From contig JANMYS010000026.1 of the NCBI GenBank assembly GCA_031382385.1, positions 3,954 through 67,953 on the forward strand: DNA of 64,000 nucleotides. The letters run 5' to 3'. Positions 14,418-20,507 of the stretch are shown one piece after another. Source of the stretch: Gemmatimonadota bacterium (GTDB lineage: Bacteria; Gemmatimonadota; Gemmatimonadetes; Gemmatimonadales; GWC2-71-9). Under the pieces are notes generated by a model that saw nothing but the letters and a program-made list of their open reading frames with translations, had not been told where the DNA came from and searched no databases. The position numbers were made by a program, and so were the translations under genes. Within the stretch, counting starts at the first letter, position 1. Each line of letters opens with the position of its first letter.

Positions 14418-15485
14418 CTATTCCCGGTCAGTTCGTCCGTCCCCGAGCAATCGTTCCACCTGATCAAACTCGATCAGGAACGCGTCGTGCCCGTACACGC
14501 TGCGGATTTCTTCGTATCGGGCGGTGACGCCGGCCGCGGCGTAGCCAGCGACCCAGTCCCGAATCTCGCGAGGATAGTACAGGATATCGCTGTCGATGCC
14601 AACGCCCACGACCTCCCGGACCCGCCACGCCGTCTGGCGGGCGGCGGCGGACAGGTCGCCAACATCGTGGCTGTCCATGGCCTGCATGAGGGAGACATAG
14701 CTGCGGGCGTCAAAGCGGTCGACCAGCTTCTGCCCGTGCCGGCGCAGGTAGTGGTCGACGTCGAACCGCCCGGGATTCCGCGTTTGCCGTCGCCCGAACC
14801 GCTGCTCGAATTCCGTCACCGAACGATAGGTAATCATGGCAATCGCGCGCGCCGCGGCCAGGCCAGCCTGCGGGCCCTCCCCGGCAGGATAGGCGCCATT
14901 CTCCCACGCCGCATCGGCCTCGATGGCCATCCGTTGCGCGCCATTCCACCCGATCGCCTGCGCGCTGGTGCGGGCTGGCGCCGCAAAGATCACGAGGCGA
15001 TCGACCGGGACCGGCGTGAGCCGCCCCCACTGCAGCGCGACCATGCCGCCGAGGGACCCTCCGGTCGCCAGCGCAATATGCTGGATGCCGAGGGCCTGGA
15101 TCAGCGGGACATGCGCCAGGGCAAGATCCGCGGTGGTGAGTGTGGGAAAACTGCCATCGCTCAGTTCCGCCGGACCGGACGAGCCGTAGCAGCTGCCCAG
15201 CAGGTTAGCGGCCACGACTGCGTGCCGGTTCGTGTCGAGAGCGCGGCCGGGCCCGAGGATCGATCCCCACCAGCCATCGATGTCGGCGTTGCCGGTCAGC
15301 GCGTGAAAGACGAGGATCCAGCCGTTCGCGTGGCCCTGCGCGGGGTCGCCAAAGATGCGGTACCGCAGCCGGGCATCGCGGATGACTCCCCCGCACTCCG
15401 GGTGGAAGTCCCCGAGCGGGAGTTCCACCGGATGGCTGCCCACCGCCGCGGGGATGGTCATGGACACTCGGGCCTCACGAAGCAC
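14418..15485 (-). CDS. metX: Homoserine O-acetyltransferase
   Basis: 355 aa. LRYRIFGDP...VFHALTGNADIDGWWG, the nucleophile elbow GGSLGGMVAL, and SDILYYP fit MetX. The start may be the GTG at 15485 (overlapping the aspartokinase 3' end) or the ATG at 15461. Confidence 0.85.
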   Translation of the reverse strand: MLREARVSMTIPAAVGSHPVELPLGDFHPECGGVIRDARLRYRIFGDPAQGHANGWILVFHALTGNADIDGWWGSILGPGRALDTNRHAVVAANLLGSCYGSSGPAELSDGSFPTLTTADLALAHVPLIQALGIQHIALATGGSLGGMVALQWGRLTPVPVDRLVIFAAPARTSAQAIGWNGAQRMAIEADAAWENGAYPAGEGPQAGLAAARAIAMITYRSVTEFEQRFGRRQTRNPGRFDVDHYLRRHGQKLVDRFDARSYVSLMQAMDSHDVGDLSAAARQTAWRVREVVGVGIDSDILYYPREIRDWVAGYAAAGVTARYEEIRSVYGHDAFLIEFDQVERLLGDGRTDRE

Positions 15486-16490
15486 GAGCGATCTGGCGGG
15501 GATCGTCCAGCACGAACACGGCGTGAATCACCCCGGTGGCCTTGCCCGCGAGGGCGGCGGGGACGAGGTAGCGACGGCCGTCGGCCGCGGGCTGAATCTC
15601 GATGAGCGGGACATGCGCCGCCCGCAGCGCCTCCCGAATCTGTTCCCACACGCCGTGCGCGACGGCCGCCCCCGTGGCGATCGTCGTGATCTCCGCGGTG
15701 TCGTCCGTGACCCGGGTGGCCACTGCGCGCAGCCCACGGTGCGCTGCATCGGCGGTGATCCGTGTGTCGCAACTCTCGCCGGTGAGCGATACGAACTCGA
15801 GCGGGAGCGATTCGGTTTCCGCGAGCCGGGCGGCGTCTGGCTGCAGCACGCGCGCGCCGGCGGCGGTGAGCGCGCTCAGGAATGCATGGGAGGCGAACGG
15901 AATCGGCTGCGCGTCGACCACCAGCTTGGGGTCGGCAGTACGAAGGCCCTCGGCGTCCTTCACGAAGACCAGGCGCGGGCTCCCCAGCGCCGCGGCCAGG
16001 GCGACCGCGGAGATATCGGTGCCGCCTCGGCCCAGCGTAGCAACCCGCCCGCGACGCCAGCCCTGGAATCCGGTGATGACGGGAAGCTCGCCGCGCGCGA
16101 GCCGACGGAGGATCCGGCTGGTCTCGATCTTCCGGATGTGCGCCTGACCGAAGCGGCCAGCCCCGTGGACACCGGCCTCCCGGGCATCCAGCGAAACGGC
16201 ACGAATGCCGAGCTCTTCGAGCGCCAGCGCCAGGAGTGCCGCGGACACCACCTCTCCCGTTGCGACGGCCCGATCCACTTCCGCATGTGGGCGAGTGCTG
16301 CCCCCGGTGGCGCCCCGGACCTCCCGGACCAGGTCGAGGAGATGATCGGTGACGCCGCGCCGGGCGCTGGCGACGGCCACGACCGGCCCCTCCGCCGCGA
16401 GCCGGCGAATCCGGCGCGCGGCGGCGAGGATGCGCTCGGGGGAGGCGAGCGCGTCTCCCCCCAGCTTCACTACAACCGGATGCTCGGGCA

Positions 16491-16491
<1 letters not shown>
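15475..16491 (-). CDS. Aspartate kinase, short form (338 aa)
   Basis: Track ORF 15475..16893, trimmed to the ATG at 16491 (MPEHPVVVKLGGDALASP). The longer version is Arg-rich junk overlapping metY. Motifs: VVKLGGDA, VITGFQG, TLGRGGTDISAVALAAAL. The ATG overlaps the metY TGA (ATGA). Confidence 0.85.
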
Positions 16492-17831
<1,340 letters not shown>

Positions 17832-17865
17832 TCAACGGTAGTGGCCTGGTTCGCGGGAATGCGAA

Positions 17866-17896
17866 AGGCCCGGTTCACGTTGGGTGAACCGGGCCT
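17866..17896 (-). promoter_or_regulatory. Perfect 13-bp stem-loop in the metY 5' leader (attenuator/terminator-like)
   Basis: The minus strand reads AGGCCCGGUUCAC-CCAAC-GUGAACCGGGCCU followed by UUCGCAUU. It sits about 50 nt upstream of the metY start. Confidence 0.5.
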
Positions 17897-18057
17897 GGGG
17901 TACATCAACGGCTGGGTGTGCTGCCTACCCACCTGCCCGTGACATGCCGCCGGCACAGTCCACCCCGCGAGGGGTGCACTTACACTGGCGACAACACATC
18001 AACGGGCTGCGCTTCATTGCTGAAACGTCTCCGGGTGACGCGCGGCGCGGTAGGTGC

Positions 18058-18090
18058 AAAAAAAACCCCCGCGGCCACGAGCTCGGGGGG
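18058..18090 (-). terminator. Rho-independent terminator (GC-rich stem followed by U8)
   Basis: The minus strand reads CCCCCCGAGCUCGUGGCCGCGGGGG followed by UUUUUUUU (the A8 run at 18058-18065 on the plus strand). Confidence 0.75.
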
Positions 18091-18176
18091 TTGGTATCCA
18101 CCGGCTCTTTAGCTCTTTGTTTTGGGGTTCACAACCCCAGGCGGTAGCAAGTGGCCCTAAATCCGTCCGCCGGACT
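18058..18176 (-). ncRNA. Candidate ~120-nt small RNA, or 5' attenuator/riboswitch element of the metY operon
   Basis: Bounded by the TTGACG-17-TATACT promoter and the U8 terminator. There is no ATG-initiated ORF inside. An internal hairpin GGGGUUGUGAACCCC is present, and a second AACCCC copy lies in the 5' flank of the terminator, allowing an alternative pairing. Confidence 0.45.
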
Positions 18177-18182
18177 GCCGAC

Positions 18183-18211
18183 AGTATAGGACGGCGTCCT
18201 GCCGTCGTCAA
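18183..18211 (-). promoter_or_regulatory. Near-consensus sigma70 promoter (TTGACG, 17-nt spacer, TATACT)
   Basis: On the minus strand the -35 TTGACG is at 18211-18206 and the -10 TATACT is at 18188-18183, with a spacer of exactly 17 nt. It begins 8 nt after the stop of the upstream ORF. Confidence 0.55.
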
Positions 18212-18221
18212 GAGTCGGGCG

Positions 18222-18617
18222 CTAGAAATCTCCCAGATCTTCCAGATCCTCGACCGCGTCAACCTCCGCCACCGGATAAAGCGCGATCGAGATGTACCCG
18301 TTCGGGTAGTCCCGGGCCCAGGCCCGAAACGAGAGCTGCTGCTGCAGCGCTGCCTCCATCTCCTCCCGCTCGCGAACCGAGAGCGGCGAGTGATCTACCC
18401 GCTTGTGACGGTAGATCTCCTGGATGCTGGCCGACAGCAGGGTGATCAGCAGGTCGCGGTTGATGCAGAGTTCCACCGGCATCAGCATGTTGATGCCACG
18501 CGGCAACGGATGCACCTCCCGCTGCGCGCTGGGCTCCCGCTCCGCCGGCTGCCCGGTTTCCGGCTCGAGCTCGGCGGGATTCCAGTCCTTCAGGAGATGG
18601 CGGATCCGGTTGGTCAT
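18222..18617 (-). CDS. Hypothetical protein with an acidic C-terminal tail
   Basis: Track ORF 18222..18770, trimmed to the ATG at 18617 (MTNRIRHLLKDW) because the longer form overlaps the divergent yajQ start. It ends ...VDAVEDLEDLGDF. No domain recognised. Confidence 0.45.
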   Translation of the reverse strand: MTNRIRHLLKDWNPAELEPETGQPAEREPSAQREVHPLPRGINMLMPVELCINRDLLITLLSASIQEIYRHKRVDHSPLSVREREEMEAALQQQLSFRAWARDYPNGYISIALYPVAEVDAVEDLEDLGDF

Positions 18618-18738
18618 CGTGCGTCCTTGCAGGGGTCTGCCTCTGTCATCGGCCATCCCCGTGAAAACTTGAGGCCCACCGTTTACATTCAAACCGCAAG
18701 TCCCAGAAGCACTTAGACCACCCCATCCGATTGCTCCC

Positions 18739-19242
18739 ATGGCCAGCAACCCCACATTCGACATCTCCACCGGCGCCGACCTCCAGGAGGTGGATAACGC
18801 CGTGAATCAGACGCTCAAGGAGATCGGGCAGCGGTACGACTTCAAGGGAACCACCTGCACGGTCGAGTTCGATCGGGAGAAGGCGGAAATCCGCCTCGCC
18901 GCGGATAGTGATTTCCGCATGGACCAGCTGGTGGATGTGCTCCGCATCAAGATGATCAAGCGGGGCGTACCGGTGAAGAATCTCGATTTTGGAGAACCGG
19001 AGGAGGCCACGATGGGCTCGGTCCGGCGCACGGTGAAGCTCACGCAGGGGATCGAGACCGAAGCCGCCAAGAAGATCGTCAAGGCGGTGCGGGATCAGGG
19101 ATTCAAGAAAGTGCAGGCGACCATCCAGGGCGACGAAGTCCGGGTGACCGCCCCGTCACGGGATGAGCTGCAGGCGGTCATCGCCTTCCTGCGGACGCAG
19201 GACTTCGAGATTGAACTCAAGTTCGGGAACTATCGCGGGTGA
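18739..19242 (+). CDS. yajQ: YajQ family (UPF0234) nucleotide / cyclic-di-GMP-binding protein
   Basis: 167 aa. MASNPTFDISTGADLQEVDNAVNQTLKEIGQRYDFKGT...QATIQGDEVRV matches YajQ along its whole length. Confidence 0.85.
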   Translation: MASNPTFDISTGADLQEVDNAVNQTLKEIGQRYDFKGTTCTVEFDREKAEIRLAADSDFRMDQLVDVLRIKMIKRGVPVKNLDFGEPEEATMGSVRRTVKLTQGIETEAAKKIVKAVRDQGFKKVQATIQGDEVRVTAPSRDELQAVIAFLRTQDFEIELKFGNYRG

Positions 19243-20507
19243 GACGAAACGCCGGCGGAAGGGGCCGCGTTCGACGGTACGCTGCGGCAGGCTTGCTGCT
19301 GCTGGCGACCTGCGCACCGCCGATGGGCGATCTGCAGTCGCCCCCCGCGCCCTCCGCAGCCGCGCCCGAGATCCGGATCGGCCTCCTGGTCGGGTCCTCC
19401 ACCGTGGAGGTCACTGGCGATAGCGGCGCCGTGGTGCAGGACGCTGATGGGAACAGTGTGGGGGCTATCGAGCCGGGCTCGCCCTGGCGGGTCCGATCCG
19501 CCGCAGGTCTGGTCGACGCCGGTGCCGCTGGCGGGTGGCAGGTGACGGGACAACAGCAGCTGACCTTCCAGCCGCGGGTCGCCGGCGGCTGGCTCCGGGT
19601 GGGCGGACGCCCGTATCGGGGGCGCCTCACGGTTGCCCGGGACCGCACCGGACTCACGGTGGTCAATGTGGTGAGTCTGGAAGACTATCTCGCCGGTGTC
19701 GTCGCGGCGGAGATGGGGCGGCGGGATTCAACCGAAGGCCAGGCTCTCGCCGCCCAGGCGATCGTCTCCCGCACCTTCGCGCTGCGGAATCTGGGGAAGC
19801 GCGCCACGGAAGGCTTCGATCTGTACGCCAGCGTGGCCGACATGGTGTACGCCGGTGCCAGTGCGGAGTATGCGGCGGCCACTGCCGCCGTGGCCGCGAC
19901 CTCCGGCCAGATCCTCACCTGGCAGGGGGTGCCGATCGATGCCTTCTTCTTCTCGACCTGTGCCGGTCAGACCGCGACTGGCACCGATGTCTTCGCCGCG
20001 GCGGACCGGCCCTACCTGCAGTCCATCCGGGATGTGGACTCCGAGGGGCAGGCGTACTGCCGGATCTCGCCCCGCTTTCGCTGGCGGGAGGAGTGGACCA
20101 TCGAGCAACTGCGTGGCGTGCTGAAGTCCACCCTCCCGTCTGCGTCCGCCGTCACGGCGGAAGCCGCGGCGGGCGTCCGCGGCGTCAGCATCAGCCGCCG
20201 AACCGCGTCGGATCGGGTGTCACGGGTGACGATCCAGCTGCGGAGCGGCGATGTCGTCGTCGAGGGGCCCGCGATCCGGCGGGTGCTGCGCCCGGTGGCA
20301 GATGCGGTGCTGCGGAGCGCCATCTTCCAGCTCAGCGAGACGCGGGAAGGCGGCCAGCTCCGGCGGCTGGTGGCCGACGGCGCCGGTGCGGGACATGGGG
20401 TCGGGTTCTGCCAGTGGGGGGCGGTGGGACGGGCGCGGGCAGGGCAGGATGCGCCGACGATACTCGCCGCCTACTTTCCGGGCACATCATTGAGCCGCGC
20501 GTACTGA
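19239..20507 (+). CDS. SpoIID/LytB domain-containing lipoprotein (lytic transglycosylase / amidase-enhancer family)
   Basis: The GTG start overlaps the yajQ stop (GTGA). Lipobox LLLLATC. Motifs: SLEDYLAGVVAAEMG, ALAAQAIVSRTFAL, FFSTCAGQTA, GHGVGFCQWGA. Confidence 0.8.
   Translation: MRRNAGGRGRVRRYAAAGLLLLATCAPPMGDLQSPPAPSAAAPEIRIGLLVGSSTVEVTGDSGAVVQDADGNSVGAIEPGSPWRVRSAAGLVDAGAAGGWQVTGQQQLTFQPRVAGGWLRVGGRPYRGRLTVARDRTGLTVVNVVSLEDYLAGVVAAEMGRRDSTEGQALAAQAIVSRTFALRNLGKRATEGFDLYASVADMVYAGASAEYAAATAAVAATSGQILTWQGVPIDAFFFSTCAGQTATGTDVFAAADRPYLQSIRDVDSEGQAYCRISPRFRWREEWTIEQLRGVLKSTLPSASAVTAEAAAGVRGVSISRRTASDRVSRVTIQLRSGDVVVEGPAIRRVLRPVADAVLRSAIFQLSETREGGQLRRLVADGAGAGHGVGFCQWGAVGRARAGQDAPTILAAYFPGTSLSRAY

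Follow-up and report, generated by a model that had tools for sequence, protein, structure and literature searches.

The metY operon and its leader

The window analyzed here is a 64,000-nucleotide (nt) stretch of contig JANMYS010000026.1 (positions 3,954 to 67,953) from the Gemmatimonadota bacterium assembly GCA_031382385.1. It carries a metY-aspartokinase-metX operon, and the leader of this operon, with its putative S-adenosylmethionine (SAM) riboswitch, is the subject of the present work. All features of the window are given on the minus strand unless marked (+). Pfam matches placed the regulated operon at 14418..17813, comprising metY (17813-16491; PF01053, 1.4e-141), an amino-acid kinase or aspartokinase-like gene (about 16480-15475; PF00696, 1.1e-38) and metX (15485-14418; PF00561). 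The closest MetY proteins and loci came throughout from metagenome-assembled genomes of Gemmatimonadales or Gemmatimonadota. Upstream of metY, the leader contains in order of transcription a promoter, an aptamer, a first terminator (T1), a small open reading frame (ORF) with Met and Cys codons, and a second terminator (T2).

A consensus scan located a sigma-70-type promoter, with TTGACG at 18211-18206 and TATACT at 18188-18183 separated by a 17-nt spacer, from which transcription is predicted to start at about 18176. On both strands of the region 16000-20000 this was the single promoter-like site (shuffled sequences, 0.5 ± 0.6), and the same scan found none between the U8 tract that closes T1 and metY, in agreement with the initial annotation of this DNA. 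That annotation had described an orphan transcription unit consisting of a promoter, a structured RNA and a terminator. Its promoter, hairpin, GC-rich stem followed by U8, and two copies of AACCCC were all recovered on the minus strand where it had placed them. The unit also lacks an ATG-initiated ORF as proposed, since ATG is absent from the ~125 nt that extend from the -10 box (18183) down to the U8 tract. A tRNA and transfer-messenger RNA scan of the leader region returned no match.

The conservation of this leader was examined in 80 metY loci, ~63 of which belong to Gemmatimonadota. Of the ~63 Gemmatimonadota genome loci, 57 had promoter, aptamer and terminator in this succession ahead of metY, and the same leader order was also found in 97 metagenome contigs. 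The motif GAUUUA-GGCCACUUGCU-CCGCC-(variable hairpin)-GAACCAAAGAGCUAAAG was present 320-350 nt upstream of metY in most loci. In the alignment, the TTGAC-N17-TAnnnT promoter, this motif, a GC-rich stem and a U-tract occurred in fixed order, with constant spacing between promoter and aptamer in every aligned locus. A covariance model, R1, was built from 54 distinct copies of the aptamer; it identified a single copy in the 64-kb window (18098-18178, 80 bits) and one copy per locus in 57 loci. The conserved order thus bears out the promoter, structured RNA and terminator as a real unit. What sets the unit apart from chance is this order together with the compensatory changes in the P3 hairpin described below, and not folding or terminator counts: the 124-nt RNA folded no better than shuffles (z = -0.65 for the single sequence), and 3 terminator-like sites were found in the scan of the 16000-20000 region, with 1.4 expected by chance.

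Further features were noted within the promoter and upstream of it. The promoter spacer (18189-18205) contains the inverted repeat GACGGC-AGGA-CGCCGUC, which is present in the closest relatives (L001-L003) and absent from other lineages; it may serve as an operator or form a stem at the end of the upstream ORF. This ORF of 182 amino acids (18222-18770), without a Pfam match, is located between the leader promoter and a divergent DUF520/yajQ-like gene at 18739-19242 (+). The upstream region was read in three relatives (L022, L049 and L023), and in each of them the yajQ-like gene directly adjoins the leader.

Aptamer architecture and family

The aptamer (18101..18172) is predicted to fold into an H-type pseudoknot of the SAM-II/SAM-V type, as indicated by sub-threshold Rfam matches, comparison with a crystallized RNA, and model R1. 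Stem P1 pairs GGCGG at 18171-18167 with CCGCC at 18144-18140, and its 5′ strand is followed by a U-rich third strand, ACGGAUUUA (18166-18158). Stem P2a pairs GGC (18156-18154) with GCC (18105-18103), while P2b pairs CUUGCUA (18151-18145) with GAGC-U-AAAG (18115-18107). The hairpin P3, GGGGUUGUGAACCCC (18124..18138), separates the 3′ strand of P1 from an A-rich strand, AAAACAAA (18123-18116), which reads (G/A)AACCAAA in the relatives. The pocket motifs GGAUUUA (18164-18158), CUUGC (18151-18147) and GCUAAAG (18113-18107) were invariant or nearly so in the 54 sequences.

The SAM-V riboswitch (RF01826) of metY and bhmT from 'Candidatus Pelagibacter ubique', with the structure 6FZ0, is composed of P1, a U-rich third strand, the 5′ strand of P2, the 3′ strand of P1, and then a P3 stem-loop; after P3 follow conserved As that dock in the P1 minor groove, and then the 3′ strand of P2, in which a bulged U pairs with the adenine of SAM (PMC6061858). 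The window RNA has the same H-type pseudoknot and U-rich third strand and likewise lies upstream of metY; its P3 again comes immediately behind the 3′ strand of P1 and precedes conserved As and a ...CUAAA strand. When the window was aligned to the crystallized metY SAM-V RNA, residues U8-U10 of the latter (18161-18159), U19, U20 and G21 (18150-18148), C46, U47 and A48-A50 (18112-18108), as well as A41 and A42, were kept. Thus, each SAM-contacting nucleotide of 6FZ0 is retained in the window, among them those of the U:A.U triple by which the sulfonium is read, with U18111 as the equivalent of the SAM-adenine-binding U47. The P2 pairs 22-45 (U-A to C-G) and 23-44 (A-U to U-A) differ from the crystal RNA by compensatory changes.

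Covariation among the relatives was uneven over the stems. Across the 54 sequences 97% of the P2 pairs were kept, with 2 compensatory pairs within the clade, while the P1 sequence GGCGG/CCGCC was invariant in the clade and compensatory with respect to the Gemmatimonadaceae P1, CGAGG/CCUCG. Since the MAFFT alignments A1 and A4 and the covariance-model alignment A3 placed the 5′ strand of P1 one column out of register in about one third of the sequences, P1 was left out of the column-wise counting. The initial annotation had pointed to the regions upstream of metY and metX in related genomes as the place to look for conservation and covariation, and there the element was indeed conserved and P3 covaried. 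In P3, 94.4% of cells were paired versus 63.5% in shuffles, 60 cells had changes on both sides, and none of 500 shuffles reached the observed value; in slid controls the signal collapsed.

The initial annotation had assigned the P3 sequence a different role, in which the GGGGUU arm alternates between the AACCCC copies at 18129-18124 and 18092-18087 as an antiterminator/terminator switch. While this duplex is possible in the window (-9.5 kcal/mol), the P3 arms vary among relatives (GGGGCC, GGACC, GCCCC, GUCCACUG and others) and the 5′ arm of T1 stays constant. The arm paired with its own T1 at -7.5 kcal/mol and with the T1 of other loci at -7.2 kcal/mol, and the swap was rejected for want of an own-versus-cross preference. 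Moreover, in SAM-V the P3 stem forms whether or not the ligand is present (PMC6061858). We therefore consider the exchange of AACCCC partners barely credible, and take the hairpin as the P3 of the SAM-II/SAM-V-type fold.

The SAM-II riboswitches are represented by RF00521 (SAM_alpha) and RF01726 ('SAM-II long loops') (Weinberg 2010, PMC2864571). They are mostly transcriptional with a GC-rich P2a and have no P3, whereas SAM-V is translational and carries P3 at the same position as the window RNA (PMC6061858). The SAM-II consensus GAUUU...GGCUUGC...AAA...GCUAAAG, the GC-rich P2a, the terminator and the metX/metY contexts were all found here. In contrast to SAM-II, the window RNA contains a covarying P3, which ranges from 4 to 12 bp across relatives, and its host falls outside the known SAM-II members from alpha-proteobacteria, Bacteroidetes and marine sequences. 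Its scores also remained below the gathering thresholds: a permissive Rfam scan gave full-length matches to RF01726 (18.0 bits vs. a threshold of 44, E = 1.3), in which P3 appears as a 16-nt insertion, and to RF00521 (12.8 bits vs. a threshold of 36). The statement of the initial annotation that the RNA resembled neither SAM-II nor SAM-V has consequently to be revised in view of these full-length matches, the retained SAM-V ligand contacts, and the identity of the hairpin as P3.

The window RNA also differs from SAM-V. In SAM-V, a 2-bp P2a hides the Shine-Dalgarno sequence, while here a GC-rich tail is followed by an intrinsic terminator. A short P2a of the SAM-V type occluding the Shine-Dalgarno sequence of the regulated gene was not found in the window, where the next start codons past the 3′ end of the aptamer (18101) are those of the small ORF, at 84 nt, and of metY, at 288 nt. 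The window RNA is GC-rich and comes from another phylum, and its P1 is longer, with 5-6 bp as against 4 in SAM-V. At position 18 the window has C and SAM-V has A, C being also the SAM-II consensus.

A hairpin-less form of the aptamer (CGAGGUCAUUUGCCGCGUAUUGCUGCCUCG...GCUAAAAAG; e.g., 2091-2161 in L058) was found in Gemmatimonadaceae relatives (L057-L066). It is closer to SAM-II than the window RNA is, matching RF00521 with 27.9 bits against the gathering threshold of 36 (E = 2.8e-4 for that small search), and it is missed by model R1 at E <= 1. Downstream, it is accompanied by the same layout of terminator, small ORF and T2. If the window riboswitch is an evolutionary intermediate, with the P3 of SAM-V on a SAM-II scaffold and platform, SAM-II and SAM-V might form a single family with P3 coming and going. 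The A-rich strand, the H-type pseudoknot, the ligand-pocket nucleotides and the Met/SAM gene context of the window RNA are those of SAM-II and SAM-V. Judged from covariation, the identity of the ligand nucleotides, and the sub-threshold Rfam matches, the RNA belongs to the SAM-II/SAM-V clan, combining the P3 of SAM-V with the P2a and terminator platform of SAM-II.

The aptamer would accordingly be expected to bind SAM. The same fold might instead sense S-adenosylhomocysteine, methionine or another SAM derivative, to which the C at position 18 and the extra P2a and P3 features unlike either family would lend some weight. However, all nucleotides that contact SAM in 6FZ0 are kept together with the sulfonium-reading triple, C at position 18 is what SAM-II itself prefers, and metX/metY is the classic SAM-II/SAM-V context. 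A different ligand is thus quite improbable, and SAM is retained as the probable ligand in what follows.

Two terminators and a Met/Cys reading frame

Terminator T1 (18058..18092), detected by a scan and conserved after the aptamer in metY loci, consists of a stem at 18092-18064 and the U8 tract at 18065-18058. The candidate switching strand, AAAGAGCCGG (18101..18110), represents the 3′ strand of P2b/P2a in the predicted SAM-bound fold and the 5′ half of a putative antiterminator. Its partner would be CCGAGCUC (18086-18079) in the 5′ arm of T1. When the 3′ arm of T1 was withheld, the tail AAAG(A/C)GCCGG folded onto the T1 5′ arm CCG(A/C)GCU(C/U), and this fold was obtained in 24 of 26 representative sequences with energies from -9 to -17 kcal/mol. 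The conserved strand predicted to compete with T1 formation is therefore this pseudoknot tail and not an arm of P3.

These elements would constitute a transcriptional OFF switch. With SAM bound, the 3′ tail GAGCUAAAGAGCC would be held in the triple-helical pseudoknot of P2b/P2a, the stem 18092-18064 would form, and RNA polymerase would terminate at U8. Without SAM, the freed tail AAAGAGCCGG would pair with the T1 5′ arm CCGAGCUC, and transcription would go on. In one sub-clade of the relatives (L018, L019, L024, L053, L054 and L056), the aptamer is followed by a stem without a U-tract, e.g., GGGGGGCGUCGUGCAUCC, and the riboswitch may there use a mode other than intrinsic termination.

Downstream of T1, the leader ORF with its Shine-Dalgarno sequence extends over 17925..18032, with GGAG at 18032-18029, ATG at 18017 and the stop codon at 17927-17925. 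The ORF contains 30 codons encoding MKRSPLMCCRQCKCTPRGVDCAGGMSRAGG, including a run of Met/Cys codons (MCCRQCKC) at 17999-17976. Among 64 distinct leaders, 52 had 5-7 Met/Cys codons per 8 consecutive codons, and 42 had a start codon preceded by a Shine-Dalgarno-like site. The Cys codons alternate between TGT and TGC among the relatives. A Met/Cys ORF was observed in nearly all Gemmatimonadota metY leaders.

The end of this ORF is followed by terminator T2 (17858..17896), which comprises a 13-bp stem, AGGCCCGGUUCAC/GUGAACCGGGCCU (17896-17866), and then UUCGCAUU. At the T2 position, 61 of the 64 leaders have a hairpin of 8 bp or more that runs into a U-rich tail (-20 to -36 kcal/mol), with compensatory changes at some outer pairs. 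RNAalifold recovered only the outer 5 pairs of T2 because the inner arms were misaligned. Before T2, a small covarying hairpin, CACCCC-UCGC-GGGGUG (17976-17961), overlaps a candidate antiterminator, GGGGUGGACUGUGCC (17966-17952), which can pair with the 5′ arm of T2. Its motif GGGGUGGAC is kept in two different reading frames, and the constraint therefore acts at the RNA level. The duplex of GGGGUGGAC with the T2 arm occurs at a constant position, and the motif changes along with the arm in distant lineages. The mean duplex energy was -17.0 kcal/mol with the own arm versus -14.7 kcal/mol with dissimilar arms, the own arm being better in 44 of 61 cases. These results give modest support to GGGGUGGAC as a candidate antiterminator of T2.

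RNA that has read through T1 would then meet a second, independent checkpoint consisting of the Met/Cys ORF and T2. A ribosome stalled for want of charged Met- or Cys-tRNA would expose the GGGGUGGAC antiterminator, so that the operon would be made solely when SAM and the Met/Cys supply are both low. By analogy, the second module looks like the layout of a classical leader-peptide attenuator. It shares with the trp, his, leu, thr and pheA attenuators a short ORF with codons for amino acids of the pathway, a hairpin overlapping the ORF, a candidate antiterminator and a terminator. It differs from them in its mixed Met and Cys codons, its location behind a riboswitch, and its Gemmatimonadota host. 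The nearest described case with Cys codons is that of the polycysteine short ORFs of mycobacteria, which unlike the present ORF are leaderless and contain poly-Cys only (bioRxiv 10.1101/834739).

The two modules were also found apart. One metagenome scan with an aptamer-only pattern yielded 116 matches, comprising 97 true aptamers and 19 chance matches, the latter about as many as would be expected at random. Among the true copies, 66 were located before metY (median distance 269 nt) and 20 before metX, and the other 11 were on contigs too short to be read, so that all 86 readable copies preceded metY or metX and no other gene. The 20 metX-linked aptamers lie ~45-110 nt from the gene with T1 as the sole intervening element, and L023 (2290-2500) likewise has the aptamer and T1 but lacks the small ORF and T2. 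Conversely, L022 (2220-2500) and L049 (2290-2500) contain the promoter, small ORF and T2 without an aptamer. Since the modules occur separately in relatives, each appears to be self-contained, and in the window one follows the other. On one metagenome contig (L171), metX is separated from the aptamer by a 185-amino-acid ORF, in the region ~200-1800 nt past the aptamer.

Leaders with two sensors in series are known from the tandem SAM-I and adenosylcobalamin riboswitches of Bacillus clausii metE, and from the Salmonella mgtA leader, which combines a Mg2+ riboswitch with the proline-codon ORF mgtL. The present leader resembles these in its two-input layout. Unlike them, it pairs a SAM pseudoknot riboswitch with a Met/Cys leader peptide, each with a separate terminator, and its two modules also occur apart in relatives.

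Transcripts, alternatives and implications

Transcript evidence was obtained from metatranscriptomes in the form of assembled contigs that contain the leaders of close relatives. At least 15 runs from sludge, sediment, freshwater and soil hold leader RNA. The contigs start at 18160-18167 in seven of the nine runs examined, ~10 nt inside the predicted start at 18176. In all nine runs they pass the U8 tract into the small ORF, and in eight they end at 17893-17921, just before T2, the contig of the remaining run (X29) ending at 17971. No contig enters the 5′ part of metY in any of the nine runs, while a DNA run assembles straight through the stop point near T2. Thus, a leader of ~300 nt accumulates and the metY body does not. 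The contig starts and the read-through at U8 indicate that the promoter is used and that the unit is not a closed 120-nt RNA. The contigs of two RNA runs reach from the leader into the 182-amino-acid ORF upstream.

These transcripts bear on the two options that the initial annotation had left side by side, namely a stand-alone small RNA or the sensing part of a SAM-responsive regulator of metY-aspartokinase-metX. A ~120-nt RNA acting in trans would fit the strong promoter and intrinsic terminator of its own as well as the abundance of leader RNA in many metatranscriptomes, and in Listeria, SAM riboswitches that have been terminated can function in trans (SreA). However, the element invariably precedes metY or metX in cis, in the orientation of the gene and with fixed spacing, and occurs nowhere else; its transcripts cross the terminator into the small ORF, and no promoter separates it from metY. 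A stand-alone small RNA is consequently very unlikely, and the orphan status proposed for the unit does not hold. The second option agrees with the confirmed operon and the matched aptamer core, which on sequence grounds point to a SAM-responsive riboswitch. The RNA is a conserved, transcribed regulatory element, and neither a new class nor an orphan small RNA.

We consider it likely that the leader is a SAM-sensing riboswitch of the SAM-II/SAM-V type with its own promoter at the 5′ end of the metY-aspartokinase-metX mRNA, acting as an OFF switch and followed by a second Met/Cys checkpoint. A number of results weigh against this interpretation. With regard to the family, the Rfam check suggested in the initial annotation returned no match at gathering thresholds in the whole window and 20 related loci, the full-length RF01726 and RF00521 matches being obtained in the permissive scan, and RF01826 (SAM-V) was absent from the matches at E <= 10 in 17600-18400. 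In P2, the pair next to P1 is mismatched in 14 of the 54 sequences, among them the window, which has A.G. Covariation within the clade is uninformative for P1 and most of P2 because these are invariant. With regard to the switch, the tail paired with its own T1 at -10.3 kcal/mol and with the T1 of others at -9.7 kcal/mol, a slight gain in a comparison whose power is low given the conservation of both strands. In about 7 of 55 relatives, no clear U-tract follows the T1 stem. The contigs cross T1, which is therefore at least leaky, and their depth is flat and cannot show partial termination at U8. In two of the nine RNA runs, contigs reach upstream of the promoter, which could be due to read-through or to DNA in the library. 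For the second module, constrained minimum-free-energy folding with a masked stalled-ribosome footprint still predicted T2; the candidate antiterminator is supported by its position and by co-variation.

The leakiness of T1 leads to the alternative that the aptamer is a SAM riboswitch whose main output is not T1, with T2 as the decisive stop; in that case, the riboswitch would control how the small ORF is translated, whether Rho gains access, or how stable the RNA is. Contigs that cross U8 and stop before T2 throughout the metatranscriptomes would be in keeping with this, as would the relatives whose T1 stem lacks a U-tract. On the other hand, the 20 metX loci and L023 have the aptamer and T1 alone, mostly with long U-tracts. 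The missing ~118-nt species says little, since short terminated RNAs are lost in ordinary RNA-seq libraries. We therefore judge a decisive role of T2 unlikely, though less so than the other alternatives, and prefer termination at T1 in response to SAM as the first of two checkpoints.

No description of SAM-II/SAM-V riboswitches in Gemmatimonadota was found in the searchable literature. In our estimate, the chances are about even that the leader represents an undescribed two-input system for SAM and Met/Cys-tRNA, with a riboswitch intermediate between SAM-II and SAM-V and a leader that might also serve as a small RNA or micropeptide source. Specifically, the ~300-nt attenuated leader could function as a small RNA or give rise to a functional Cys-rich micropeptide.

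The finding extends the SAM-II/SAM-V clan to Gemmatimonadota, an abundant phylum of soil and sediment with few cultured members, in which Rfam-based annotation presently finds no such riboswitch. About 150 sequences are available to seed a covariance model for this group. The points of most interest are the architecture bridging SAM-II and SAM-V in an under-studied phylum and its tandem arrangement with a Met/Cys leader peptide. If the proposed reading is true, a single leader would join a metabolite riboswitch to a ribosome-mediated attenuator, which is a rare combination, and since the modules are separable, their logic would be testable.

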